NCBI GenBank assembly: GCA_963695545.1
Contig: OY968796.1
Coordinates: 1,440,001 to 1,504,000, forward strand
Source: Terriglobia bacterium
Lineage (GTDB): Bacteria; Acidobacteriota; Terriglobia; Acidiferrales; UBA7541
Direction: 5' to 3'
DNA: 64,000 nt
Shown here: one piece after another, positions 32,066 through 48,090 of the stretch
Layout: each line of letters starts with the position of its first letter
How positions within the stretch are numbered: the stretch's first letter is position 1
Made by a program: the position numbers and the translations under genes
The notes under the pieces: generated by a model
What the model saw: only the letters and a program-made list of their open reading frames with translations
What the model was told of the DNA's origin: nothing
Database searches by the model: none

Positions 32066-32473
32066 GTGAAGAAACTCTATATCGGGAATCTTCCGTTTCA
32101 GGCCACTGAAGAAGAAATCACTGAATGGTTCACGCAAACCGGAGTAACTCCTTCCAGCGTCATGCTGATCCGCGACCGCTTCACGGGCCAACCTCGTGGC
32201 TTCGGCTTCGTAGAAATTCAAAACGATGAAGAGGCCCTGCGCGCCGTCCAGGCGCTGAACGGGCAGCAGCTCAAGGGAAGAAGCATCGTGGTTAACGAAG
32301 CGCGTCCGCCGCGAGATGGCGGTGGAGGCGGCGGGCGCCCCGGGGGCGGCGGTGGTGGGCGCGGCGGATTTGGCGGAGGCGGAGGTGGTGGCCGCGGTGG
32401 CGGAGGCGGCGGGCGCGGCGGCGGTGGTGGCCGAGGCGGCGGGGGCGACCGAGGCGGCGGGCGCGACTGGTAA
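32066..32473 (+). CDS. RRM RNA-binding protein with Gly/Arg-rich tail
   Basis: KLYIGNLPF (RNP2), RGFGFVE (RNP1), VVNEARP, RGG/GGG tail; GTG 32066 follows a G-rich RBS. Confidence 0.92.
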   Translation: MKKLYIGNLPFQATEEEITEWFTQTGVTPSSVMLIRDRFTGQPRGFGFVEIQNDEEALRAVQALNGQQLKGRSIVVNEARPPRDGGGGGGRPGGGGGGRGGFGGGGGGGRGGGGGGRGGGGGRGGGGDRGGGRDW

Positions 32474-32500: not shown

Positions 32501-32608
32501 GACCTGCTCGGGGCGCATTGCTTCAATCAGCTGCGTGTAACGCACTGCTTTAATCAACCACGCGGAGCGCACGCCTTCAACCAACCGCGCGGAGCACATT
32601 GCTCTAAT
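32501..32608 (-). repeat. Four degenerate 27-bp tandem repeats (same family as 43135-43215)
   Basis: + strand units gacctgctcggggcgcattgcttcaat / cagctgcgtgtaacgcactgctttaat / caaccacgcggagcgcacgccttcaac / caaccgcgcggagcacattgctctaat. Confidence 0.8.
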
Positions 32609-33881
32609 GGGCCGAGGCGCGGTGAGCTTCGGCCCGCTCCGCGGCGTTTCCGGATCGCACCTCTTCGATCTGCTCAACGCGCCCGCCCGAATAGCGGTAG
32701 CGTTCGCGTGTCGCCGACTCGACGCCGCGCGCCACCAGTGCAGGCACATCCAGGCGCGCTTCGGCCTGATCGAGTTCTTCCGCGAGCGCGTGCAGCGCCG
32801 GAGTGCGCGGCAGAAACAGCGGACAGCAATCGTGAAATGGCTCCGCGGAAATTTCGTAGGTTCCGATCTTCCGCGCGATCGCCAGAATCTCCTGCTTGTC
32901 GTCTCCCGCCAAAGGACGAAACACCGGCATGCGCACCGCGTCGCCCACGGCCACCATGTTGTGCAGCGTTTGCGAGGCCACTTGTCCCAGGCTATCTCCC
33001 GCGACGATGCCTTGCGCGCGATCCGCGAGCGCCAGACGTTCCGCGATGCGCAGCATCATCCGGCGATAGAGCAGCACGCGATACGTTTCCGGCGCCTGAC
33101 CCACGATTTCGCGCTGGATCGCCTCAAACGGCACCAGATGCAGTTTCGCCGTAAATTGATACGGCACCAGGCGCCGCACCAGTTCGCGCGCCACGTGCAC
33201 CGAGCTTTCTCCCGCCCGCGCGCCGCCGCCCCAGAAATGCACGAAGCTCAAGTGCGCCCCGCGCTTCATCATTTTGTACGCGGCCACCGCGGAATCGAAA
33301 CCGCCCGAAAGCAGGCACGCCATGCGCCCCGCCGTGTTCGCCGGCAGACCGCCCGGCCCCGGAATTTTTCGCGCGTAAACCAGCGCCGGTCCCGGCGGAA
33401 TCTCGATGCGGCAGGTCAGCTCCGGATCGCGCAACTGCACGCGAACTTCATGCCCCGCTGCCCGCAGCCGGTCGAGCAAATATCGACCCACGATCGTTTC
33501 GATTTCGGTCACGCTGTGCGGGAACGATTTGTCGCTGCGCTTGGCGCGCACGGCGAAAGTCGAAAATCGCTCGGACGCAATTTCCTCCCACGCCGCGCGG
33601 CAAATATCTTCCATCGGTCGCTCGCCGCCCCGATCCACCGGCCGCGCCACGGCGTAATAAGCCACGCCGAAAACGCGCTCGAGACGCGCCCGCGCCTCAT
33701 CGAGCGATGGCCCTTCCCCCAATTCGATCACCAGCCGGTCCGCGGGCCGCGTCACGCGCACAAGCTCCAGCCCCTCGAGCGTCGAGCGCACCGCCGCAAC
33801 CAGCTTCGAGAGGAAAAATTGGCGATTTCCCCCCTTCAGCCACAGTTCGTGATAATGCGCGACGATCACTCGTTTCGTCAT
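32604..33881 (-). CDS. thiI: tRNA 4-thiouridine synthase (no rhodanese domain)
   Basis: HYHELWLKGGNRQFF, THUMP domain, PP-loop LLSGGFDS, GDSLGQVASQT, DCCPLF. Start at ATG 33881. Confidence 0.94.
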   Translation of the reverse strand: MTKRVIVAHYHELWLKGGNRQFFLSKLVAAVRSTLEGLELVRVTRPADRLVIELGEGPSLDEARARLERVFGVAYYAVARPVDRGGERPMEDICRAAWEEIASERFSTFAVRAKRSDKSFPHSVTEIETIVGRYLLDRLRAAGHEVRVQLRDPELTCRIEIPPGPALVYARKIPGPGGLPANTAGRMACLLSGGFDSAVAAYKMMKRGAHLSFVHFWGGGARAGESSVHVARELVRRLVPYQFTAKLHLVPFEAIQREIVGQAPETYRVLLYRRMMLRIAERLALADRAQGIVAGDSLGQVASQTLHNMVAVGDAVRMPVFRPLAGDDKQEILAIARKIGTYEISAEPFHDCCPLFLPRTPALHALAEELDQAEARLDVPALVARGVESATRERYRYSGGRVEQIEEVRSGNAAERAEAHRASAH

Positions 33882-34055: not shown

Positions 34056-34525
34056 GAAAGAGTGCGCAAGAGATTGAGCGCAATGGGTTTGCGAGCGTTT
34101 ATTTTCAATAAGATGCGCACTCCTTTGCATTTGGTTTGGAATCATTCGTTTACGGCGACACAATTGTGCGGGTAAGCGCGGTTCGGTCGCGATCAATCGA
34201 TGATATTTTGTAGACCAGGCCGGGCGGGCGACAGGGAGGCTCCGCCGTGCGTGCGCGGACTTGACCGCCAAGATTCGCACGGTTGAGCTGGGCTCGAACG
34301 GAAAAATCTTGAGCGGGCGAGCGGTTGGGAGGTGTGGTTCGAGGCTCATGCGTGATGGTAGCACGAAGGGCAACGCAATGTCAATATTATCTATGAGTTA
34401 TAATTCGAATGCGATGGGTGTGAGGGCATAGCGGAATGATTTTGCGTGAGATTTCCAGAGTCTTGGTCCTCCGTCTTGTAACGATTGCGATACGGGCGAG
34501 ACGACCCGCGACGGGCGAAACATTG

Positions 34526-34548
34526 AGAAAACGTCCCGTCTGTCCCCG
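34526..34548 (+). repeat. 23-bp direct repeat AGAAAACGTCCCGTCTGTCCCCG, copy 1
   Basis: Identical to 34871-34893. Confidence 0.9.
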
Positions 34549-34551
34549 ATG

Positions 34552-34854
34552 ATCCTGCCAGACATGTCCGCTGGACTTGTGAGACGCGTTCCAATACGAA
34601 GCATAGCGCCCATGGGTTTGTTTCAAGGCCAACGCGAGGGCTTGGGTCTTGCGCGGAACGACCACTAAATGCATGTGGTTGGACATCAGGCAGTAGCCCA
34701 GCAGCGATAAGTCGTGGAGTTGAACGTACTGGCGTAACAGCTCCAGGTAAACCGAGCGTTCGCCATCGGAAGCGAGAAGGAGTTGCCGCGCGTTACCGCG
34801 CTGCGTTACATGGTGCGGGACATTGGCGACTACGATACGAGCCAAGCGAGCCAT
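34552..34854 (-). pseudogene. Truncated Y1 (HUH) tyrosine transposase, second RAYT/IS200-like type
   Basis: MARLARIVVANVPHHVTQRGN...YCLMSNHMHL...SGHVWQ, then stops resembling the family at the 23-bp repeat; the catalytic Tyr region is missing. Confidence 0.85.
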
Positions 34855-34870
34855 CACCCGATAAAATACC

Positions 34871-34893
34871 AGAAAACGTCCCGTCTGTCCCCG
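34871..34893 (+). repeat. 23-bp direct repeat, copy 2
   Basis: Identical to 34526-34548; followed by partial echo TCCGTCCCCGG. Confidence 0.9.
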
Positions 34894-34940
34894 GGTTCCG
34901 TCCCCGGTTTTCGCGGCCTTCCATTCGCGGTCGAGAGGAT

Positions 34941-35351
34941 TCAATCCTTTTGATTCAAGAAGCGGCCGAGATATGCATTCAGTAGTGCATTCTCGATCAG
35001 GGTGGCGAAGAAAAACTCGATTAGCCCGACCTGTCTCAACCGCAGTAGGACCACGAATCCCAGGCCGAAGTGGAGAATCGAAAACAGCACCAACGGGCCC
35101 CAGAATCTGCGCGATCTCCAAAAGGGTTCGGAGTGGCGTATCGCATTGCCGAAAACCAGGGCGCTCATGATCCCGAACCCGAGCCACTTGAGCGGCAGTC
35201 CGGACGTTCGACCCAGCCTGCCTTGGTGGACTGCGTAAACCCCGCCAACGACGACTAGTAGAATACCAATCAGGCAGTAGAGCAGCAGGTCCCGAAGCCT
35301 CCGACGGACAGTGCCTGGATGCGGATTGTTCGCAGGTGCGTTCAATGGCAC
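34941..35351 (-). CDS. Small membrane protein (about 4 TM), candidate immunity protein
   Basis: Hydrophobic segments; start overlaps the stop of the fragment at 35342-35559. Confidence 0.6.
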   Translation of the reverse strand: MPLNAPANNPHPGTVRRRLRDLLLYCLIGILLVVVGGVYAVHQGRLGRTSGLPLKWLGFGIMSALVFGNAIRHSEPFWRSRRFWGPLVLFSILHFGLGFVVLLRLRQVGLIEFFFATLIENALLNAYLGRFLNQKD

Positions 35352-35559
35352 CCTCCGCTGGTTGCCGTCTCCCCTTCCTGGATGTCTGCCTGAAACAGGG
35401 CACCGTCGATATATCCGGCGGCCGTCTCGGCCGCGCTCTCCACAGCACTTCCGTTCTTGATATTGTTGAACGGTCTAGAATTGTTAGGGGCGATGAGTCC
35501 TGTCCCCCCTTCAACGTTGGGCCTTGACGCGGCGTACTTCATCGCGTTACCAGCCCTGA
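35342..35559 (-). pseudogene. Orphan C-terminal fragment, probable polymorphic-toxin tip
   Basis: Frame VRAGNAMKYAASRPNVEGGTGLI...SGGCH* begins exactly at the element end (35560) and is coupled to a small membrane gene; identity is inferred from context only. Confidence 0.45.
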
Positions 35560-36464
35560 CGGGCGGGTGGCGCGCCCTTCCGTGAGCATGTGCATTTTCG
35601 ATCTCCACGCGCGAATGATACCATTAGCGACCTTCACCTTCGAGTAACATCGCGTGTCAGTCGGGATGCGGTTTGCGCAGCCCGGGGTGGCCCATTCTTT
35701 GTCCGCCGCGGCGGACAAAGGGTGGGGATTTCGATTTCGGGGTCGCTTCTACGGGCCCTCGTCGATCCGGACGAGTCCTTCCACGCCCTTCGCGTAATAC
35801 GACCAGCTGCTCCACGGCCAATCCTTTGGATGACCCACCAGCTTGTTCTTCACCGGATTCATGTGCATGTATTCGAGCTTCTCGATTTTTTTCTTGTGAC
35901 TCCACACGTTGAAGTCGTGAAATCTGCGCTGCCAGAATTGGCGCGGCACGAGTTCGCCTTCGACGAATGCGAACGGCAGCTGCGTTTCCGGCGCGCGCTT
36001 CTTCCTCGCGCGCAGGCGGCGCGAAACTCTTTGCTTCAGCACTTGCATCACGGTGGAAGGCGTTCCTTTCGCCGGTTCGCTGATTAGCAGGTGAACGTGG
36101 TTGGGCATCACGACGTATCCGACGAGGAGAAATCCGTAGCGGTCGCGCACTTCCCCGAGAATTTTTATGAACACGTTTCTGGCACGCGCGGAGGCAAGCA
36201 ACGGCAACCGCCGGTAGCACGTGTAGGTGAGGAAATGCAGGTCTTGATTGCCGTAGTAGCGTTTGAGATTCCAGGGCATGAAGGCGAACCCACGGACCCA
36301 CCCTTTGTCCGCCGCGGCGGACAAAGGATGGGCCACCCCGGGCTGCGCAGACCGCAGCCCGATGGACGCGCGATGTTACTCCAAGGTGAAGATCGCTAGT
36401 GGTGTCATCCTCGCGTGAGGACTAAAAAACTACAGAAGCAAACAGAGGGTGCGCCACCCGCCCG
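35560..36464. mobile_element. RAYT-like element 1: ~165-bp inverted arms (35560-35726 type A; 36297-36464 type B) around a Y1 transposase
   Basis: Arms are reverse complements over most of their length; each holds the palindrome CTTTGTCCGCCGCGGCGGACAAAG and ends in GCGGGTGGCGC. Confidence 0.85.
35749..36279 (-). CDS. REP-associated tyrosine transposase (HUH Y1), copy 1
   Basis: HFLTYTC, YVVMPNHVHLL (HUH), FWQRRFHD, YMHMNPVK (catalytic Tyr), DWPWSS. Confidence 0.92.
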   Translation of the reverse strand: MPWNLKRYYGNQDLHFLTYTCYRRLPLLASARARNVFIKILGEVRDRYGFLLVGYVVMPNHVHLLISEPAKGTPSTVMQVLKQRVSRRLRARKKRAPETQLPFAFVEGELVPRQFWQRRFHDFNVWSHKKKIEKLEYMHMNPVKNKLVGHPKDWPWSSWSYYAKGVEGLVRIDEGP

Positions 36465-36515
36465 TGCGCCGAAGTTGTCCAGATTGGATTCTGTGTCCCG
36501 TTCTTTGCCGGTATA
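36462..36515 (-). pseudogene. RHS repeat-associated core fragment (N-terminal part)
   Basis: YTGKERDTESNLDNFGAR, cut at the element end where YY...GRF..PD would normally follow. Confidence 0.8.
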
Positions 36516-36850
36516 ACGTGATCCGCCACGATTTTCCAGCAACGCTCCGTCTATCCCTAGTGCGCTCGCGGAGTTAGACCACGCACTGCCCTGATGTGGT
36601 GCTACATTTTTCCTCGCGAACCCCAGACGCGAGTTTTCGCCTACACCCTCGAAAGCATCTAAAGGAAAAAACACACACGGATCGCTGCATGACCCACGGA
36701 ACACGTGTTCTTGAGCTGCTTCCATTGGCGGGTACCCGACTCCCTCCGCACGCTCCTGGGTCAAGCAAGACGCCGCCAGCACGGTTTCACGCGGCGGTCT
36801 AACCCTCCCCTACTGTTTGTCAGGCTCCGGCTTTGGGAGCTTTCGGGCCT

Positions 36851-37381
36851 TTACGTTGGCAACGGAAAAATCACGAGCCGATATCCGGCGAAGGGAAGGG
36901 GATGGCCCCATCCTCCCCATTTGCCGACGACCTTGCCCGACACATCATGGAGAAGGCCTAACGAGTCTTCGGTGGTTCCAGCCGGGACTGTGGCAACCTC
37001 CAGTTTTCCGGTTAGGGCTGCCTGAACCTGGTACATAGGGCATGCCTCGCAAGGGCGCTCTTTCGTTCCTTTGTAGACTGCGCTTGTGTACTTTTGAAAA
37101 CGCTTGAGATTCGCGTCGGGATGCTCCTTAAAATTCGGAGATTCCTCGCCAGCTTCTCCGTACACGAGCACAACTGCATCCCGACATCCCGGAATGTTGA
37201 GCAGCATGTCGTGCGGACCATCCACAACGCTTCCTTGGAGCGTGACAGTCTGGCCATTCGTGTATGACGAAAGCGCGCAAGCAGTCTGATTACCCTGTTG
37301 TGCGACGGCGGTTGCTGAACAGAACAAGAGAAAAAATATCGGGCACGCTAGTGCAGACACGGCAGCGCGCGCAGGCTTCAC
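36851..37381 (-). CDS. Secreted Cys-containing hypothetical protein
   Basis: Signal peptide (..ATAVA|QQ), CxxC (CEAC); GTGA overlap with the upstream gene. Confidence 0.65.
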   Translation of the reverse strand: MKPARAAVSALACPIFFLLFCSATAVAQQGNQTACALSSYTNGQTVTLQGSVVDGPHDMLLNIPGCRDAVVLVYGEAGEESPNFKEHPDANLKRFQKYTSAVYKGTKERPCEACPMYQVQAALTGKLEVATVPAGTTEDSLGLLHDVSGKVVGKWGGWGHPLPFAGYRLVIFPLPT

Positions 37382-37842
37382 TTCTTTCCTGCTGGCATAT
37401 CCACTGTACCGGGCCAGCGTAGGGCTTCCACTTCAACTGCCGAGGGGAGGTTGAGTATCACGCGCGGATTATTTTGGGATGGTTCTAGGTCCGTCACAAG
37501 TTTGTAGGTGTAGGTCACGGTGAACGTGGTTGGCGTGTGGGGCGAGAACTGCCACGTTCGGAGGTTCTCCTCAGCAAAATCAGCTAAGAGCTTATGGCCG
37601 TCCTCAACTTGTATGGAGACTACGTGGTGGCCATCCGTCGTGGCCTTAAGGTGCACTACCCCTTCAACATTTGCGAGGCGTGCTGTCGGAGGGTACAGAG
37701 GCACTTGGGCCGAAGTAACCATAGGTAGGGCCACGCGCACTTGCTGTGCGCCTATCGCCAAGCTTTCCAAAAGTAGAAGACTCGCCGCCCCGACTGCTCG
37801 CCAAAGAAAATTGCCTTTCATCAGATTTGCTCCTATGCCCAT
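37378..37842 (-). CDS. Small secreted TonB C-terminal-domain-like protein, in immunity position
   Basis: Signal peptide; PLYPPTARLANVEGVVHL..G....V....GH..L....EENLRTWQF pattern; no Pro-rich linker; TGATG overlap with the RHS toxin stop. Confidence 0.7.
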   Translation of the reverse strand: MGIGANLMKGNFLWRAVGAASLLLLESLAIGAQQVRVALPMVTSAQVPLYPPTARLANVEGVVHLKATTDGHHVVSIQVEDGHKLLADFAEENLRTWQFSPHTPTTFTVTYTYKLVTDLEPSQNNPRVILNLPSAVEVEALRWPGTVDMPAGKK

Positions 37843-38582
37843 CAGTTCGGCCAGGGATTGTGTGGCGTCGTCTCTGGATGAGTCGGTTGTCCGTTTTGGT
37901 CATGGAATCTCGTAACGAAATTGGTGATGTTCTTATCCACTTGCGCCCAACTTCCGTTCCAAAGAACGTAGTTCGTTCCGTCGTAACTCCGAGAAAACGA
38001 GGTCGCTCCAAGCGCGGACGCAGCGAAGATTGAAGTCTGGTATCCGCGATATTCGGTGGAGAAAGGGCTAAGGCTTGGCAAGGATCCGAGAGTGATGTAG
38101 TCGTTGACAGCCTGTGTTAGGAAATCCTCGACGTGCGTACCCTCGTGAGCCGCGTCTATCGCATACTCGCCCTGGCTGCTTATCTTGCTCGGATCGAAAG
38201 TGATAGTAGCTCCAAGCATGCCACTTTGACTGGCGCTGAAATCGGTTTGGGCGGCTGCATCCCCGCTCAGTGCGCCAAACGTGACGTTCACTCCGTTGTT
38301 GTCGCCTTGGGTTCCTAGCGCCGTCAGTGATGCTTCGAGCCTATCTTTTGCAGCGCCGTTCTTCATCTTGTCCACTTGCTTCTGTAAGTTGGACAGCCCA
38401 TTCTTCAAGTCCTTCGCGTGCTGATTGAACTGCTTGTTGCATTTCTTGTCGTCTGAGGCGCAGTTGTTCACCAGGTCGTAGAGTCCTGTTGGATCGATGA
38501 TGTTGAGCGGATTGTTTAGCGCATAGGCGTACCGATTCCACGTTTGAGGATTGCTAGGTCGTCCGCTGTTCAGCAACGGATC
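37842..38582 (-). pseudogene. Orphan RHS core end plus C-terminal toxin domain (HExxH metallopeptidase-like)
   Basis: DPLLNSGRPSNPQTWNRYAYALNNPLNIIDPTG core end, then about 210 aa with AAHEGTH and TEYRGY; begins at the element end. Confidence 0.85.
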
Positions 38583-39483
38583 GCGGGTGGCGCACCCTTT
38601 GTCTGCGTCTGTAGTTTTCAGCCGTCACGCGCGGATGATACCACTAGCGACCTTCACTGTGGAGTAACGTCGGACGTCCGTCGGGCCGCGGTGTGTGCAG
38701 CCCGGGGTGGCCCATTCCTTGTCCGCCGCGGCGGACAAAGGGTGGGGCTTTCGATTTCCGGGGTCGCTTCTACGGACTCTCGTCGATCCGGACGAGTCCT
38801 TCCACGCCCTTCGCGTAATACGACCAGCTGCTCCACGGCCAATCCTTTGGATGACCCACCAGCTTGTTCTTCACCGGATTCATGTGCATGTATTCGAGCT
38901 TCTCGATTTTTTTCTTGTGACTCCACACGTTGAAGTCGTGAAATCTGCGCTGCCAGAATTGCCGCGGCGCGAGTTCGCCTTCGACGAATGCGAGCTGGAG
39001 TTGCGTTTGCGGCGCGCGCCTGTTCCTCGCGCGCAGGCGGCGCGAGACTCTTTGCTTCAGCACTTGCATCACGGTGGAAGGCGTCCCTTTCGCCGGTTCG
39101 CTGATTAGCAGATGAACGTGGTTGGGCATCACGACGTATCCGACGAGGAGAAACCCGTAACGGTCGCGCACTTCTTCAAGAATCTCAACGAACACGTTTC
39201 TGGCGCGCGCCGAGGCAAGCAGCGGCAAGCGCCGGTAGCAGGTGTAGGTGAGGAAATGCAGGTCTTGGTTGCCGTAGTGGCGCTTGAGATTCCAGGGCAT
39301 GACGGCAAACCCACGGACCCACCCTTTGTCCGCCGCGGCGGACAAAGGATGGGCCACCCCGGGCTGCGCAGACCGCAGCCCGACGGACGCGCGATGTTAC
39401 TCCGAGCTGAAGGTTGCCAGTGAATCCATTCCCGCGTGGAGATCGAAAATGCGCACCCTCACGGAAGGGTGTGCCACCCGTCC
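38583..39483. mobile_element. RAYT-like element 2: inverted arms (38583-38746 type B; 39318-39483 type A) around a Y1 transposase
   Basis: Same arm architecture and palindrome as element 1. Confidence 0.85.
38770..39300 (-). CDS. REP-associated tyrosine transposase (HUH Y1), copy 2
   Basis: Same motifs as copy 1; 11 differences over 176 aa by manual comparison. Confidence 0.92.
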   Translation of the reverse strand: MPWNLKRHYGNQDLHFLTYTCYRRLPLLASARARNVFVEILEEVRDRYGFLLVGYVVMPNHVHLLISEPAKGTPSTVMQVLKQRVSRRLRARNRRAPQTQLQLAFVEGELAPRQFWQRRFHDFNVWSHKKKIEKLEYMHMNPVKNKLVGHPKDWPWSSWSYYAKGVEGLVRIDESP

Positions 39484-39611
39484 TAGGATTCACATATGCG
39501 CATTGGCGGCAAAAATGGATCGAGGGCGGAATGGTATGGAAACGCGTGAGCCTAAAGCCTCCGCCAAATTGGCACCCTGGAGACCAACTGCGGCATGTGC
39601 TGCCCGCATGA
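39480..39611 (+). pseudogene. C-terminal gene fragment cut by element 2
   Basis: VLGFTYAHWRQKWIEGGMVWKRVSLKPPPNWHPGDQLRHVLPA* starts at the arm end; resembles from memory the tail of small CPCC-like proteins found beside toxins. Confidence 0.4.
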
Positions 39612-39808
39612 TTCACCCTTCGGAGCCGGGCGGTGACGATTTTGAAACAGGATCGAAACAACGGCGAGTTCACCGTAGACGCCCACCACCTTTGGGCGTA
39701 TACGACAATCTCTGACGTGGACCGTGGCTTTGTGTGACCTTTCGAGGGGCTAGAGCATCTGAGATACTTCAGGCGCTCCGGTCAAGCGAGCAGACGGGAG
39801 TTGTTGAT

Positions 39809-40075
39809 GTGGATAAGCGGGATTGGGAAGCATATTTCGAGATTGCCCGGACTCCCGGGCGGCGCCGCCGTCCGCCCCGGCCGATCTGCCCGAGTGAGGC
39901 CAACCACATTCTTCCGGCCATCGGCTTCAGTCTATCTGAGCTTGACGACGCCGGGATTGACGTCGAACTCGCCGAACGTCTCGGCCTGCCCGTAGATGCC
40001 GGACGCATTGGAGCTTATGGTCCCAATGTCTCGAGCCTGCGCGAGTTTGCCAGGATGGCCCGCCGTCCCGGTTAA
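39809..40075 (+). CDS. Small protein resembling ribosomal protein eL13 (L13e)
   Basis: GFSLSELDDAGIDVELAERLGLPVDAGRIGAYGPNVSSLREF fits the L13e core pattern without gaps; GTG 39809 has GGGAG 8 nt upstream (track start 39734). Confidence 0.65.
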   Translation: MDKRDWEAYFEIARTPGRRRRPPRPICPSEANHILPAIGFSLSELDDAGIDVELAERLGLPVDAGRIGAYGPNVSSLREFARMARRPG

Positions 40076-40123
40076 CGCTCGGTAGTTCTATTACTGGGTG
40101 CAGCCGCCGCGCCTGCAATTCGC

Positions 40124-40151
40124 TTGACGGCCCGGAAACTTTCGGTAAACT
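40124..40151 (+). promoter_or_regulatory. Candidate sigma70 promoter, near-leaderless
   Basis: TTGACG 40124-29, 16-bp spacer, TAAACT 40146-51, ATG at 40161. Confidence 0.5.
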
Positions 40152-40160
40152 GCCAACTTC

Positions 40161-40454
40161 ATGCTGACGATGATGACGCCCGCGACCGTGATCCTTTCCG
40201 AAGAGGCGGATTTCGCCTTTCCGCAGCGCGAAGCGGCCTTCTTCTACGGTCTATTCCTGCGCGGCCACTCCGCCGACGAGTTGCGCCGCGATATCGAGGT
40301 CCCGCCAACCATCCTGGCAAAATGGCATCGCGAGGCCGAGCGCGAGCCGGACCTGCGCGACGTCTTCGACCGCATGATCACCTACCGGCGCCACGTGCTG
40401 GCCATCTTCGAGTCGCTGGTTGGCAACGAGAACCAGATCCAACGCGTGCAGTAG
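40161..40454 (+). CDS. Hypothetical protein (97 aa)
   Basis: Strongly GC-biased third codon positions like host genes, own promoter; no family recognised. Confidence 0.7.
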   Translation: MLTMMTPATVILSEEADFAFPQREAAFFYGLFLRGHSADELRRDIEVPPTILAKWHREAEREPDLRDVFDRMITYRRHVLAIFESLVGNENQIQRVQ

Positions 40455-40563
40455 CCCGTCCCGGCTGCGCGCCCGCTCGCCGGCCGTCTTTACTTCCGGT
40501 TTTTCGTCCGCTACACTCCGCGCTTGAGTCGCCGAAAACCCTTCTTTCGCGGATCCCCAGGAT

Positions 40564-40638
40564 TCCCCGGTAGCTCAATGGTAGAGCATTCGGCTGTTAA
40601 CCGAAGGGTTGCTAGTTCGAATCTAGCCCGGGGAGCCA
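40564..40638 (+). tRNA. tRNA-Asn(GTT)
   Basis: Acceptor TCCCCGG/CCGGGGA, D-arm AGCTCAATGGTAGAGC, anticodon arm TTCGG-CTGTTAA-CCGAA, GTTCGAATC, encoded CCA. Confidence 0.97.
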
Positions 40639-42330: not shown

Positions 42331-43230
42331 GTGCCTCAAAACCTTTCCGCCTTGCGATCGAAACTCGAAGCGGCTCTGGCCGGTCGCGTCGCTGCGCCTT
42401 TTGCGGTTCGCGATCGCCAGCTTTTTCAGACGGTTTCCGCGGGCATCGCCGAAATCGACTTTCTGACCAGCGGTTTGCCGCGCGGAGGGCTCACGGAAAT
42501 TTATGGCCCGTTCTGCTCCGGCCGCACGAGTTTGCTGCTTTCGGCCTTGGCGTCCCGGACAAATACCGGCGAGGTCTGCGCTCTTGTGGATGGATGCGAT
42601 GCCTTCGATCCGCATTCGGCGCAAGCCGCCGGCGTGGAATTGAAAAAGCTGTTGTGGGTGCGTTGCCGGAATCTGGACCACGCCCTGCGCGCCACGGATT
42701 TGCTTTTGCAGGGCGGCGGCTTCAGCCTGATCGCCCTCGATCTGAGCGATATTTTTTGGAAAACCATCCGCAATGTGCCGCTGCATGTCTGGTTTCGTCT
42801 GCGGCGCGCGGTGGAAAACACGCCCACGATTCTGATTCTTCTGAATCGGGAGTCCCAGGCAAAAACGTGCGCCTCGCTGGTTCTGCGTCTCGAAGCCGAG
42901 CCAACCTGCCGGATCACCGTGCCGGAAATTTGCGATCCCCGTTTTTTTCAGCATTCGTGGACATGTTTGTTTGATGGATTTGAAATCCACGCGGAACGAA
43001 TCCGTTCTCGCGTGCAATCCGTCACGGACGCATATGGCGGCAATGTCGCCGCCCCGGTAATCGCGGACAGCAAGGCGTCAACGTTTAAAACCCGGGCCCT
43101 CTGGAGTTACTTCAGCCGCGATGCGCTCCGCGGCCCATTGAAGCAATGTGCTCCGCACAGCCCGGTGAAGCAATGCGCTCCGCACAGTCCATTGAAGCAA
43201 TGCGTTCCGCGCAGTCCGGTCGTGAGGTGA
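42331..43230 (+). CDS. imuA: ImuA / RecA-like translesion cassette protein
   Basis: SGLPRGGLTEIYG...SGRTSL (degenerate Walker A), ALVDG.DAFDP.SA..AGV.L..LLWVR, LIALDL; precedes imuB-dnaE2. Confidence 0.85.
   Translation: MPQNLSALRSKLEAALAGRVAAPFAVRDRQLFQTVSAGIAEIDFLTSGLPRGGLTEIYGPFCSGRTSLLLSALASRTNTGEVCALVDGCDAFDPHSAQAAGVELKKLLWVRCRNLDHALRATDLLLQGGGFSLIALDLSDIFWKTIRNVPLHVWFRLRRAVENTPTILILLNRESQAKTCASLVLRLEAEPTCRITVPEICDPRFFQHSWTCLFDGFEIHAERIRSRVQSVTDAYGGNVAAPVIADSKASTFKTRALWSYFSRDALRGPLKQCAPHSPVKQCAPHSPLKQCVPRSPVVR
43135..43215 (+). repeat. Three 27-bp tandem repeats inside the imuA 3' end
   Basis: ccattgaagcaatgtgctccgcacagc / ccggtgaagcaatgcgctccgcacagt / ccattgaagcaatgcgttccgcgcagt, encoding PLKQCAPHS, PVKQCAPHS, PLKQCVPRS. 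Confidence 0.9.
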
Positions 43231-43264
43231 GGATTGGGCAGGTTTCTTTCCCGATCGCGTTTTT

Positions 43265-44884
43265 ATGGCTTTTGCCGCCATTCACGTTCCCGACTTCATG
43301 CTGCAAGCCGTGGTGCGCGCCGAGCCGCATCTTCACGGCCGCGCCCTGGTTCTCATCGAAGGCGCTGCTCCCCTCGAGATCGTTGTGGCCGCCAGCGAAG
43401 CCGCCTTGCGCGCGGGAATTGAGCTCGGCATGGCGAAGTCTCAAGTGGAGCAGTTCTCCGTCATGGAAATTCGTCATCGTTCCTGCGCGCAATCGCGCGC
43501 GCAGGAAAAATCCGCGCACGCGGCCTTGCTCGATCTCGGATGGTCCTTTTCGCCGCGCCTTGAAGACGTTGCGCCGGATACCATCGTTCTCGATCTCGCG
43601 GGTCTGCAAGTTCTTTACAGTTCCAAGGAAAATATCGCGGAGCAATTGGCCGTGCGCGCCCGCGGTCTGGGTCTTGCGGCGAACGTCGCGATCGCGTCCG
43701 AGATTGAATCTTCCATCATCGCCGCGCGCAGTTTTTCGGGAATTACATTGATTCCCGCGAGCCAGGAAGCGAAGCGCTTGGGCTGTTTGCCGGTCGCGGC
43801 GCTTTCGCCGTCCGCGGAACTTCGCGAAATATTGGAACGCTGGGGAGTGCGCACCTGCGCGGCGCTGGCTGCGTTGCCCGTTCTCGATTTGTCGGAACGA
43901 TTGGGGCAGGAAGGTGTGCGCCTCCATGCGTTGGCTCGAGGTGAAAATGCGCGCGCGTTGATCCTTGCCGAGCCGGCCGCAACTTTCGAGGAGGAAATGG
44001 AACTCGATGACGCCGTGGAGGAACTCGAGCCGCTGGCGTTTATTCTCGGCCGGCTACTCGATCAACTTTGCGCCCGCTTGAATGCGCGTTCGCTCGCCGT
44101 GCAAGTGATTCGCCTGCGATTCGATCTCGAACGCTCCCCCGAAAAAAACATCCGGTCCCTGGAAGAAGACTCGCGCCAAAAACCAAACGCGGCCATTTAC
44201 GAAAAAACCGTGACGCTGCCAGTGCCAATGCGCGATTCCAAAATGCTTTTGCGATTGCTGCGCTTGAAGCTGCAAGCGGATCCGCCGCCGGCCGCGATTT
44301 GCAAAGCCGTGATTGCCGTCGATCCCGCCGGGCCGCGCTCGACACAAGGCGGATTATTTCTTGCCGGTTTTCCCGATCCCGAAAAGTGGGAGTTGATGAT
44401 CGCGCGTCTCGCAAATCTGGTGGGCGAAGCCAATGTCGGCTCGCCCGAGCTGATGGATACGCATCTTCAAGGTGAATTCCGGATGGACCGGTTCGCAACT
44501 TTTGCAAAAGAAGCGGGCCTTGCTCGAAACAGAAAAAGTGTCCCGGCGCAAGACCCCGTGACGGCGTTTCGTGTTTTTCGGCCGCCCTTCGCGGCCAAGG
44601 TCGAATTGCGCGAGGAGTGTCCCGTGCGCATTGTGTTTTGCGGCGTGCGCGCCGAAGTGATCGCCGCCTCCGGTCCGTGGCGCACATCGGGAAATTGGTG
44701 GGCGGAAAATGTTTGGCAGCACGACGAATGGGACATCGAGATTCGCTGTGATTGTGTTTCTGCTGACGATGTGCGCGGACGAAATTCAGCCGCGCGCTCC
44801 GAAACGCCTCCGCGCAATGGAATGTACCGCATTTATTTCGACGGCCTGCGCCGAAGCTGGTTTGTGCGCGGAGTCTACGATTGA
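43265..44884 (+). CDS. imuB: ImuB, inactive Y-family polymerase-like protein
   Basis: AALRAGIELGM, FSPRLE..PDTIVLD, WGVRTC, QGGLF clamp-like motif, ASGPWRTSGNWW, GVYD end. Confidence 0.88.
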   Translation: MAFAAIHVPDFMLQAVVRAEPHLHGRALVLIEGAAPLEIVVAASEAALRAGIELGMAKSQVEQFSVMEIRHRSCAQSRAQEKSAHAALLDLGWSFSPRLEDVAPDTIVLDLAGLQVLYSSKENIAEQLAVRARGLGLAANVAIASEIESSIIAARSFSGITLIPASQEAKRLGCLPVAALSPSAELREILERWGVRTCAALAALPVLDLSERLGQEGVRLHALARGENARALILAEPAATFEEEMELDDAVEELEPLAFILGRLLDQLCARLNARSLAVQVIRLRFDLERSPEKNIRSLEEDSRQKPNAAIYEKTVTLPVPMRDSKMLLRLLRLKLQADPPPAAICKAVIAVDPAGPRSTQGGLFLAGFPDPEKWELMIARLANLVGEANVGSPELMDTHLQGEFRMDRFATFAKEAGLARNRKSVPAQDPVTAFRVFRPPFAAKVELREECPVRIVFCGVRAEVIAASGPWRTSGNWWAENVWQHDEWDIEIRCDCVSADDVRGRNSAARSETPPRNGMYRIYFDGLRRSWFVRGVYD

Positions 44885-47800
44885 AGTACGTCGAATTGCA
44901 CGCGCGTTCCGCCTTCAGTTTTCTCGAAGGGGCCTCGCTGCCCGAAGCGCTGGCCGCGGAATGCGCCAAGCATGAAATGGGAGCCATGGCGCTGCTCGAT
45001 CGCGACGGCATGTATGGCGCGCCCCGATTTTATCTGGCCGCGACAAAACTTTCTCTGCGGGCGCATATCGGCGCGGAGGTCTCTGCGGCAAGCGGCTGGC
45101 GTTATCCGCTGCTGGTGGCTTCGCGCGCGGGATACCAAAACATTTGCCGCCTGATTACGCGCATGAAACTGCGCGCGCGAAAAAACGAAGGCCACGTAGA
45201 TGAAGAAGAGTTTCTCGAAAATTCCTCCGGCCTGATTTGCCTCACAGGCGGCGAAGAAGGGCCGCTGGCGCACGCGCTTAAACAAGAAGGAATCGCGGGC
45301 GGACTCGCCTGCGTGGCGCGACTCGCGGAACTTTTCGGCCGCGAAAATGTCTATGTCGAATTGCAGCGCCACTTTTCCCGCGAAGAAGAGGCGCGCAACC
45401 AGGCGGCTATCGAAATCGCGCAAACCGCGCGTCTGCCTCTTCTGGCCACGAACGGCGTTTGCCACGCGCTGCCGCACGAAAGAGAAGTGCTGGACGTTTT
45501 CACCTCTCTGCGTCATCACCGCACTCTCGCCGCCGCCGGACGCCTTCTTTCCCGCAACGCCGAGCGCCATTTGAAAGCGCCCGCGGAGATGGCCCGATTG
45601 TTTCGAGACATTCCCCAAGCCATCGCCAATACCGAAACTCTTTCCTCTCGCCTCGAATTCACTTTGAAAGACCTGGGATATCAATTCCCAAAATATCCGG
45701 TTCCGGATGGCGCGTCGGAAATGCAGTTTCTTCGCGAACGCACACGCGACGGATTGCTGCTGCGCTATGGTCCTGACGACGAAAAAGCGCGGCGGCAGAT
45801 GGAACGCGAGCTGGCTTTGATCGAAAAACTCGAGCTCGCCGGTTATTTCCTGATCGTTTGGGACATCGTTCGTTTTTGCCGCGAGAAAAACATTCTGGTG
45901 CAGGGGCGCGGCTCGGCCGCCAATAGCGCGGTCTGCTACGCGCTGGGGATCACCGCCGTCGATCCCGTCAAAATGGATTTGCTCTTCGAGCGATTTCTCT
46001 CCGAAGAGCGCGGCGAATGGCCCGATATCGATCTCGATCTTCCCAGTGGAGATCAGCGCGAGCGCGTCATTCAATACGTCTACGAGCGCTACGGAAAATT
46101 GGGCGCGGCGATGACCGCCAACGTCATCACCTACCGCAGCCGCTCGGCGGCGCGCGAAATCGGCAAAGTTCTCTCGTTCGAGTCCGACACGCTGGAGCGC
46201 CTGACGAAAGTGGTGGGAGCCTGGGGATATAAAGATGCCGACGAAACCCCCGATCGGCAGTTTCGCGAGGCGGGTTTTGATCTTCGGCATCCGCAAGTTC
46301 GCAAATTTTTCGATCTCTGGCGAATGATTCAGGATCTGCCGCGTCATCTCGGGCAGCACTCCGGCGGAATGGTGGTCTGCCAGGGCCAGCTCGATTCGGT
46401 CGTGCCGCTCGAACCGGCCACGATGCCCGGGCGCGTCGTGGTGCAATGGGACAAAGAAGATTGCGCCGACATGGGCATCGTGAAAGTGGACCTGCTCGGC
46501 TTGGGCATGATGTCCGTGCTGGAAGATTCCATAAAAATAATTCGCAACGATTACGGCGAGGAAGTGGATTTGGCGCACCTGCCGGCCGACGATCCCGCGG
46601 TTTACGACACGCTGCAAAAGGCGGACACCGTCGGCATGTTTCAGATCGAAAGCCGCGCGCAGATGTCTTGTTTGCCGCGCCTGCGCCCGAAATGTTTTTA
46701 CGACATCGTCGTGCAGGTGGCCATCATCCGCCCCGGTCCGATCGTCGGCAAGATGGTGAATCCATATTTGAAGCGCCGGCAGGGCCGCGAGCCGCCGGAT
46801 TGCCTACATCCATCGCTGGAAGCTGTGCTCGCTCGCACGCTGGGAGTGCCTCTGTTTCAAGAGCAGTTGTTGCGCATGGCCATGATCGCCGCCGGATTCA
46901 CGGGCGGCGAAGCCGAAGAATTGCGCCGCGCCATGGGCTTCAAGCGCTCGGAGCTGCGCATGAAATCCATCGAGGAAAAGTTGCGCGCGGGAATGACGCG
47001 CAATGGAATCTCGAGCGAAACACAGGACGCCATCGTGCAATCCATCGTGTCCTTCGCGCTCTATGGCTTTCCCGAATCGCACGCCGCGAGTTTCGCGTTG
47101 CTCGCCTACGCCAGCGCTTATTTGAAGTGTCATTATCTCGCGGCATTTACGGCCGCGCTGCTCAATAACCAGCCGATGGGCTTTTACAGTCCCGCGGTTC
47201 TTGTAAAAGATGCGCAGCGCCACGGCCTGCGCGTCAAACCGGTCGATGTGACTTGCTCGGATTGGAACTGCACACTCGAGTGCGATCGAGAGAATTTTGC
47301 CGTGCGCCTCGGCCTGCGATACGTTAAAGGCTTGTCTGCCGCCGTGGGCGCCGAAATCGCCTGCCAGCGCGTGATTCGCGCATTCACAACCATCGACGAT
47401 TTGAAGCTGCGCGTCCCTGCGATATCGAAATCCGAACTCACGGCGCTGGCGGAAGTCGGCGCTCTGAATTTCATCGCCGGCCACACAGCGTTTCATCGCC
47501 GCGACGCCTTGTGGCAAGTCGAACGCGCCGCGCGCCGTGCCGGCCCGTTGCTCGAAACGTTGGAAGAAACGCGAGAGCCGGAAAAAGAAAGTGATTCGAT
47601 TGTTTTCCCCTCGATTTCTCCCGCAATTTCTCCGGCAATTTCCTCCGCTGCGGCAGCCTCGCCCTTATCGCCCATGACTTCGGATGAAAGATTGATCGCC
47701 GATTATCGTGGCACGGGCCTCACCGTCGGCCCTCATCCCATGGCCTACCGCCGCGCGCAAATCAAAGCGCAGGGCATTCGCGCGGCGTGCGAGCTTCGCG

Positions 47801-48090
47801 ATCTTGCCGATGGCGTCCGAGTGCGCATCGCCGGAGCTGTGATCGCGCGTCAACGCCCCGGCACGGCGAAAGGCTTTGTGTTTTTGAGCCTCGAAGACGA
47901 AACCGGCATCGCCAACGCCATCCTCACGCCGCAAGTCTTCCGTGAAAATCGCTTAGTGGTCGTCGAGCAGCAATTTCTGGTCATCGAAGGCCAGTTGCAA
48001 AATCAAGAGGGCGCGATTTCGGTGAAGGCCGAATCGGTCTGGCCGCTCTCCATCACGCGCGTGGACGCCCAGTCGCACGATTTTCATTGA
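44881..48090 (+). CDS. dnaE2: Error-prone DNA polymerase DnaE2 (ImuC)
   Basis: YVELHARSAFSFLEGAS, GRGSAANS, PDIDLD, PRHLGQHSGG, YGFPESHA, RQRPGTAKG, C-terminal SHDFH. Confidence 0.96.
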   Translation: MKYVELHARSAFSFLEGASLPEALAAECAKHEMGAMALLDRDGMYGAPRFYLAATKLSLRAHIGAEVSAASGWRYPLLVASRAGYQNICRLITRMKLRARKNEGHVDEEEFLENSSGLICLTGGEEGPLAHALKQEGIAGGLACVARLAELFGRENVYVELQRHFSREEEARNQAAIEIAQTARLPLLATNGVCHALPHEREVLDVFTSLRHHRTLAAAGRLLSRNAERHLKAPAEMARLFRDIPQAIANTETLSSRLEFTLKDLGYQFPKYPVPDGASEMQFLRERTRDGLLLRYGPDDEKARRQMERELALIEKLELAGYFLIVWDIVRFCREKNILVQGRGSAANSAVCYALGITAVDPVKMDLLFERFLSEERGEWPDIDLDLPSGDQRERVIQYVYERYGKLGAAMTANVITYRSRSAAREIGKVLSFESDTLERLTKVVGAWGYKDADETPDRQFREAGFDLRHPQVRKFFDLWRMIQDLPRHLGQHSGGMVVCQGQLDSVVPLEPATMPGRVVVQWDKEDCADMGIVKVDLLGLGMMSVLEDSIKIIRNDYGEEVDLAHLPADDPAVYDTLQKADTVGMFQIESRAQMSCLPRLRPKCFYDIVVQVAIIRPGPIVGKMVNPYLKRRQGREPPDCLHPSLEAVLARTLGVPLFQEQLLRMAMIAAGFTGGEAEELRRAMGFKRSELRMKSIEEKLRAGMTRNGISSETQDAIVQSIVSFALYGFPESHAASFALLAYASAYLKCHYLAAFTAALLNNQPMGFYSPAVLVKDAQRHGLRVKPVDVTCSDWNCTLECDRENFAVRLGLRYVKGLSAAVGAEIACQRVIRAFTTIDDLKLRVPAISKSELTALAEVGALNFIAGHTAFHRRDALWQVERAARRAGPLLETLEETREPEKESDSIVFPSISPAISPAISSAAAASPLSPMTSDERLIADYRGTGLTVGPHPMAYRRAQIKAQGIRAACELRDLADGVRVRIAGAVIARQRPGTAKGFVFLSLEDETGIANAILTPQVFRENRLVVVEQQFLVIEGQLQNQEGAISVKAESVWPLSITRVDAQSHDFH

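Follow-up and report, generated by a model that had tools for sequence, protein, structure and literature searches.

A standalone eL13-like gene of Acidiferrales bacteria and a sister subfamily in a molybdenum hydroxylase operon

The window analysed here, 64,000 nucleotides from the genome of a Terriglobia bacterium of the order Acidiferrales, carries at 39807..40075 of its forward strand a standalone gene that is real and that encodes a true homologue of the archaeal and eukaryotic ribosomal protein eL13. One Acidiferrales family has kept it by vertical descent, as a near-core gene at a conserved locus. The explanation that we prefer, at a probability of roughly 45%, is an old acquisition that now acts as a small protein-binding, non-ribosomal accessory factor. 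A sister subfamily, encoded behind the FAD subunit of one molybdenum hydroxylase, is new here.

The eL13 fold, its altered surface and the gene model

The original prediction held that the gene product resembles eL13, and profiles, model and fold search all bear this out. An HMM search with Pfam Ribosomal_L13e (PF01294) gives a significant match that lies below the curated cut-off (E 8.8e-4, 19.6 bits against 24.9), and the same holds for NCBIfam L13e (NF008914; E 5.2e-10, 38.8 bits against 96). L13e is the sole family listed at E<=1 in both Pfam and NCBIfam, with no competing family. A named archaeal eL13 (P0211) also falls under the NCBIfam cut-off, at 74.9 bits, yet passes that of Pfam, at 46.9. 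The top PDB sequence match is the eL13 of Pyrobaculum calidifontis (9e6q_AH, E 2.4e-5). An AlphaFold2 model, built on 51 aligned sequences including three archaeal-like rows and without templates, has a mean pLDDT of 82, with residues 1–20 at 56–61. When it is searched against 48,161 chains, the best eight are all eL13 (Z 10.7–8.1) and the ninth row scores 2.9; the superposition on 9e6q_AH has a Z of 10.7 and an rmsd of 1.5 Å over 68 aligned residues. Foldseek agrees (eukaryotic eL13 match, E 4e-5), and the ESM Atlas returns three Acidobacteriota clusters and archaeal L13e clusters, with no others. The likeness to eL13 is far beyond chance. A reading as an IcmE/DotG-type decapeptide repeat (PF25296) was rejected: the protein has a single GFSxxELxxAG-like stretch, the IcmE matches are weak and none passes, PF25296 is not listed for the protein, and the fold search returns eL13.

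By the function tests applicable here, the protein is not a member of eL13. Its host is neither archaeal nor eukaryotic, as the closest relatives are titled Acidiferrales or Acidobacteriota and the flanking genes are bacterial. In consensus and charge, it lacks the basic GRGF and DxRRR motifs, whose residues in eL13 we take to be rRNA-touching, together with the basic core. Charge was compared over a 48-residue core, the archaeal-like set being the 112 of 119 rows that carry the motif, many of them without a taxon label. The net charge of this core is −4.0 in the gene's family (n=225), −2.4 in the sister subfamily (n=83) and +5.6 in archaeal-like eL13 (n=112), and the number of Lys and Arg residues averages 3.6 across the 225 family rows versus 12.0 in the archaeal-like set. 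GRGFS has become PAxG[FY]S, and DxRRRS has become DAGRIG.

The protein consists of an aromatic N-terminal helix, followed by an Arg/Pro arm and the eL13 core at residues ~36–85, and its overall pI remains 8–9. Eight arginines are near-invariant in the gene's family (R5, R22, R25, R34, R67, R79, R83 and R86; 95–100% of 224 rows), as are W2, D6 and W7 over the same rows; the window protein has His at position 34. The acidic or neutral replacements at basic positions and the basic N-terminal patch, both pointed out in the original prediction, are genuine and family-wide. G, S, E, L, A, R, N and L, which stay invariant in every group, look like a folding core.

The gene had been read as the 88-codon frame at 39809–40075 (+), from GTG 39809, which is how it stands in the assembly. 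At codon 2 the closest relative has a G that is missing from the window. Two DNA runs of the same study yield contigs identical to 39600–40592 in every letter, save for one extra G behind 39810, and its absence from the window is thus an assembly error. Adding it restores the MW start of the family, whose proteins begin M-W or M-T-T-W, and the start is thereby corrected to ATG 39807, for a product of 89 amino acids. The GC3 of the gene is 0.65, in a family range of 0.53–0.82. RNA cover comes from one 180-nt contig of one RNA run, which spans 39957–40135 at a depth of 2.5; the second RNA run has none on the gene.

Retention, locus and promoter motif

A protein search returned 871 relatives among 881 candidates, the nearest named one from Candidatus Acidiferrales. 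Within the order sample, 182 of the 191 genomes of the window's family have the gene, a count that takes in, for this purpose only, six unpublished positive genomes (G493, G477, G382, G319, G314 and G363). It is found in none of the nine genomes of the order's two other families and in none of six from one genus of the same family. Across a phylum sample, with 17 candidates scored per genome, four of 301 genomes matched, as did 0/14 control genomes, and no match was found in the viral contigs, plasmids or phages searched. The median dN/dS is 0.049 (77 sequences; 1,335 of 2,926 pairs with usable dS), and the gene is thus under strong purifying selection.

The gene sits outside ribosomal operons. 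Of the 76 loci fetched, 68 have an RRM-like gene in the 3 kb upstream, 11 have thiI upstream and 52 have lipA downstream; some of these records are titled with other phylum names yet have the same gene order, and we infer that the titles are mislabels. Locus comparison identifies thiI (32604..33878, minus strand) as the usual divergent neighbour, beyond which come the RNA-binding, RRM-like gene (about 32066–32473) and then the arg operon. In the window, a mobile block of ~5 kb (approximately 34400..39500) separates thiI from the gene. In the block, two Y1 transposase copies that are nearly identical, with 36-nt palindromes at either end, stand around a TonB-C gene, an exported-looking protein and a C-terminal frame (37842–38576) that we presume to be Rhs-like by its motif, Pfam giving no such match. 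The original prediction had placed the gene at the edge of a mobile region, and the block does adjoin it. A 97% identical relative (L001) has the gene and lacks the block, and the gene's locus is conserved, which together make the block a later insertion and neither the gene's vehicle nor the source of a recent transfer; the GC3, within the family range, also counts against such a transfer.

Downstream lie a 97-aa gene (40161..40454, +), which matches no Pfam or NCBIfam family and looks helix-turn-helix-like by eye, and tRNA-Asn(GTT) at 40564..40638 (+), a tRNA that the 97-aa gene often adjoins. A direct count finds this neighbour in 4/76 loci, and its presence in 5/5 tested genomes that lack the eL13-like gene rules it out as a dedicated partner. 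In three genomes of the gene-less genus, thiI adjoins the 97-aa gene, with neither the eL13-like gene nor the promoter motif between them. Further along the window (42331–48090), RecA-like, Y-family-polymerase-like and DnaE2-like genes stand in a row, presumably as an imuABC-type mutagenesis cassette.

Upstream of the gene, at 39735..39762 (+), are two boxes 15 nt apart (score 10.1), a pattern resembling an ECF sigma-type promoter. The family consensus is GAACC-N15-GCATCCAA, and the window copy reads TGACC and GCATCTGA. GCATC occurs within 200 nt upstream of the gene in 77/77 loci, and in 68 of the 75 scored a GAACC-like box precedes it by 15 nt. Another 31 loci, possibly from genomes that are also in the first set, always have GCATC and a spacer of 15 at their best upstream site, and a score of 8 or more is reached upstream in 20 versus 5 of the 31 downstream controls. 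The motif is absent from 3/3 empty sites, i.e., loci without the eL13-like gene. A genome-wide scan gave 24 matches versus 14 in one shuffle, and wrong spacer lengths gave similar counts; we therefore claim no regulon, and matches near Lon and YceI-like genes were dropped as regulon members. Scoring 19 sigma-70 region-2 loci for self-promoters singled out no cognate sigma factor. The 97-aa gene has a sigma-70-like promoter match of its own (40124..40151, +; 9/12 positions), and a similar site is present in the empty loci L208–L210. This suggests, at the level of promoter matches, that the eL13-like gene is transcribed on its own. Five loci (L082, L084, L086, L087 and L088) have a second high-scoring copy of the ECF-type motif just downstream of the eL13-like gene.

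The sister subfamily and the origin of the bacterial branch

Distant matches led to a second bacterial eL13-like group, which HHalign shows to be homologous to the gene's family (probability 99.6) and which has the same fold, matching 9e6q_AH at Z 8.8. A metagenome scan with the pattern of this sister subfamily, and hence selected by it, gave 84 loci, of which 80 were kept and joined by three genome loci. In 73 of the resulting 83 the sister gene lies directly behind the gene for a FAD-binding subunit; of the ten exceptions, six are truncated where the contig ends, in one the FAD gene stands about 250 nt farther upstream, and the remaining three have different neighbours. Non-redundant representatives give 15/18, and the start of the sister gene overlaps the FAD stop by 4 nt in 65/74. 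The operon comprises the genes of a fused 2Fe-2S/Mo subunit of ~950 aa and of a FAD subunit for which 5y6q_B is the nearest match; neither subunit reaches an NCBIfam cut-off. Such an operon, with the eL13-fold protein as its last gene, is seen in L127, L161, L181, L112 and about 70 more of L117–L196. Among 201 genomes of one class, the unpublished G664 and G598 being among the negatives, the four with the sister gene are also the four with a close FAD orthologue (69–100% identity, the rest at 44% or less); these four belong to one family and are thus kin, and G527 among them looks rearranged. One member of the subfamily is named Candidatus Binatus, which indicates that the molybdoenzyme unit spans phyla. 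In the sister proteins from L136–L139 and L150–L156, the N-terminal arm contains 1–4 additional copies of a six-residue repeat, and this arm thus tolerates changes in length.

The window gene was considered as a molybdoenzyme-linked member and rejected, as it reads SLSELDDAG rather than SxLELERAG and has no such operon. The enzyme was looked for in the window genome and not found, the best matches being at 28–30% (large subunit) and 41.5% (FAD subunit). Any Acidiferrales partner is therefore not the molybdoenzyme of the sister subfamily.

For the phylogeny of the bacterial homologues, thinning at 72% identity reduced 436 sequences to 86, to which one was added, and 86 columns were kept. A branch with support of 98/96 sets all 38 standalone bacterial-type rows apart from archaeal eL13, and support for the enzyme-linked group is 100/95, in a tree that is unrooted, has few columns, a bootstrap that had not settled and no labelled Asgard or eukaryotic rows, and in which one unlabelled row (P0363) was moved to the bacterial group after a quick tree had been inspected. 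Further standalone eL13-like proteins on the bacterial side are P0208, P0210, P0207, P0199, P0203 and P0363. A different arrangement is found in L080:223-1707, which encodes a 494-aa protein upstream of, and overlapping, a DEAD helicase gene. Its C-terminal domain is a canonical basic eL13 (net +9, GRGFS and DRRRRS intact) that groups with the archaeal rows on a long branch, and this fused tail is apparently a separate acquisition.

The most economical origin of the standalone branch is an old transfer from TACK-type archaea. The original prediction of horizontal acquisition is in keeping with this, the patchy range making a transfer from archaea plausible; its link to the mobile region falls away, and the tree, being unrooted, gives one bacterial branch and names no donor. 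It is improbable that the direction was the reverse, the standalone bacterial branch being an old non-ribosomal family from which eL13 was recruited into the ribosome of TACK-type archaea. The bacterial forms are not nested in the archaeal sample and a long branch lies between, and Yutin et al. (PMC3353972), in the available portion of that paper, map the origin of L13e to the ancestor that Cren-, Thaum- and Korarchaeota share rather than to the archaeal root. However, the bacterial range is very patchy, fast change after the loss of rRNA contacts would also produce a long branch, and the tree is an unrooted one of 86 columns, without labelled Asgard or eukaryotic rows.

Function and comparison with known systems

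The loss of much of the RNA-gripping charge, together with the placement of the sister genes inside a molybdenum-enzyme operon, makes a new job outside the ribosome probable. The original prediction of a repurposed fold gains indirect support from the charge reversal, the ECF-type promoter motif and the enzyme-operon context of the sister; the loss of ribosome binding that it implies is something that we infer. In the preferred explanation, the gene would descend from the short archaeal type of eL13 and have entered bacteria long ago. An ECF sigma factor would switch it on in some stress or growth state, and the acidic eL13 lobe, along with the invariant aromatic N-terminal helix (W2, D6, W7), would dock on a conserved protein partner or, alternatively, eL13-like proteins would dock on each other as an oligomer. 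The low model confidence of this helix suggests that it probably folds on binding. Once docked, the protein may act as a stabilising or regulatory subunit, a role that the sister subfamily would play for its molybdoenzyme. Several observations weigh against this. The eight arginines and several aromatics, with a pI of 8–9, also suit RNA binding; the molybdoenzyme link is confined to the sister subfamily, with four related genomes behind the co-occurrence and a scan selected by the sister pattern; and the genome-wide regulon failed its control.

Those arginines are the starting point for the next candidate, a conditionally expressed ribosome or RNA binder in which a new arginine set, placed on the N-terminal arm and the C-terminal helix, would hold 23S rRNA in or close to the eL13 site, or else some other structured RNA, protecting or tuning ribosomes under stress. 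We consider this unlikely, though worth keeping in view. R79, R83 and R86 are spaced for one helix face, all 88 residues align with eukaryotic eL13 ~29–128, N-terminal helix included, and the available text of bioRxiv 10.1101/2021.01.31.429008 describes the N-terminal loop and first helix of archaeal L13e as projecting into the 50S core; the RRM-like neighbour and the low dN/dS fit as well. Against it, the canonical basic motifs are gone and the core is acidic, the N-terminal alignment is weak given its pLDDT, and the sister subfamily has the same altered core yet sits in an enzyme operon. Nor is there a matching insertion in 23S rRNA: comparing three genomes with the gene versus five without, no insertion or deletion segregates, and 41 single-base differences are indistinguishable from kinship. 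Large 23S insertions, of hundreds of bases near positions 600, 1224 and 1980, were seen in L203 (G386), L206 (G303) and L200 (G171), and that of G303 looks like an intervening sequence that codes for an endonuclease. The eL13-like protein replaces neither bL28 nor bL35, as both are present in the window genome. A working eL13, built constitutively into the Acidiferrales 50S subunit, would explain the single copy in nearly all family genomes, the size and fold of archaeal eL13 and the automatic database names, but it is very improbable for a protein with an acidic core that scores under both curated cut-offs, is missing from 6/6 genomes of one family genus and 9/9 of the order's other families, and has an alternative-sigma-type promoter motif. 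A DNA-binding regulator or modulator of the helix-turn-helix type is likewise very improbable. The accessible part of PMC11354259 places the eL13 fold in CATH 1.10.10, and the only rows under the eL13 matches in the fold search are weak MerR-type ones (Z 2.2–2.9); Z values below 3 are no more than background, both central helices are acidic, and neither a regulated operon nor an operator was found. A bolder and doubtful proposal gives one archaeal-type eL13 two careers: stress-time docking on the 50S subunit through a rebuilt arginine surface in Acidiferrales, and a dedicated third subunit of a molybdenum hydroxylase in other soil bacteria.

In the available portions of PMC3353972 and bioRxiv 10.1101/2021.01.31.429008, eL13 is treated as a ribosomal protein specific to archaea and eukaryotes, with L13e patchy among archaea and bacterial copies unmentioned; in the parts of bioRxiv 10.1101/2024.11.12.623245 on Dri, L13 does not occur. 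Our literature search, whose coverage stopped short of most subscription journals, supplements and COG or family tables, found no paper on bacterial eL13 homologues. Some members already bear the automatic JGI and NCBI names "L13e" or "eL13 family ribosomal protein", so that databases already record the homology, although our search brought up no study of it. What such labels tell about these bacterial genes is their ancestry and not their function. That nearly all genomes of a large family of soil bacteria contain a standalone, strongly conserved version means that the eL13 fold crossed domains and was kept, and the molybdoenzyme-tied branch points to a change of jobs. Were the protein to bind the 50S subunit, it would be a cross-domain addition to the bacterial ribosome; were it to bind a protein, it would clearly exemplify how a ribosomal fold is put to new use, as a subunit of an enzyme or in stress; and two careers would mean both a bacterial ribosome with an archaeal/eukaryotic protein and a ribosomal protein turned enzyme subunit.

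Among known systems, the molybdenum hydroxylases of the xanthine oxidase family (PaoABC, 5g5g; aldehyde oxidase, 5y6q; 4-hydroxybenzoyl-CoA reductase, 1rm6) compare with the relatives' operon and not with the window: the sister operon encodes a fused 2Fe-2S/Mo and a FAD subunit of this kind, but it adds a coupled eL13-fold gene and reaches no NCBIfam equivalog cut-off. The helicase-partner tail of L080 is likewise an eL13 fold in a bacterium outside ribosomal operons; it is fused and basic, whereas the window gene is a standalone ORF, as in 77/77 loci. With eukaryotic eL13 (4v8p_AU, 8g6j_LL) the protein shares the globular domain, and its whole 88 residues align (Z 8–9.4), with the match of the N-terminal helix resting on a low-confidence part of the model, but it has neither the C-terminal extension of ~100 residues nor the basic surface. 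Archaeal eL13 (NF008914, PF01294; 9e6q_AH) has the same fold and length class and has in common with the gene's family the invariant core residues G-F-S-x-x-E-L, A, G, D-x-x-R and N-x-x-x-L. In contrast, the gene's family has an acidic core (−4 vs +5.6) with PAxG[FY]S and DAGRIG, adds a W-x-K-R-D-W helix and an RPPRP arm, scores below both curated cut-offs, and is found in a bacterial host under an ECF-type promoter motif of its own.
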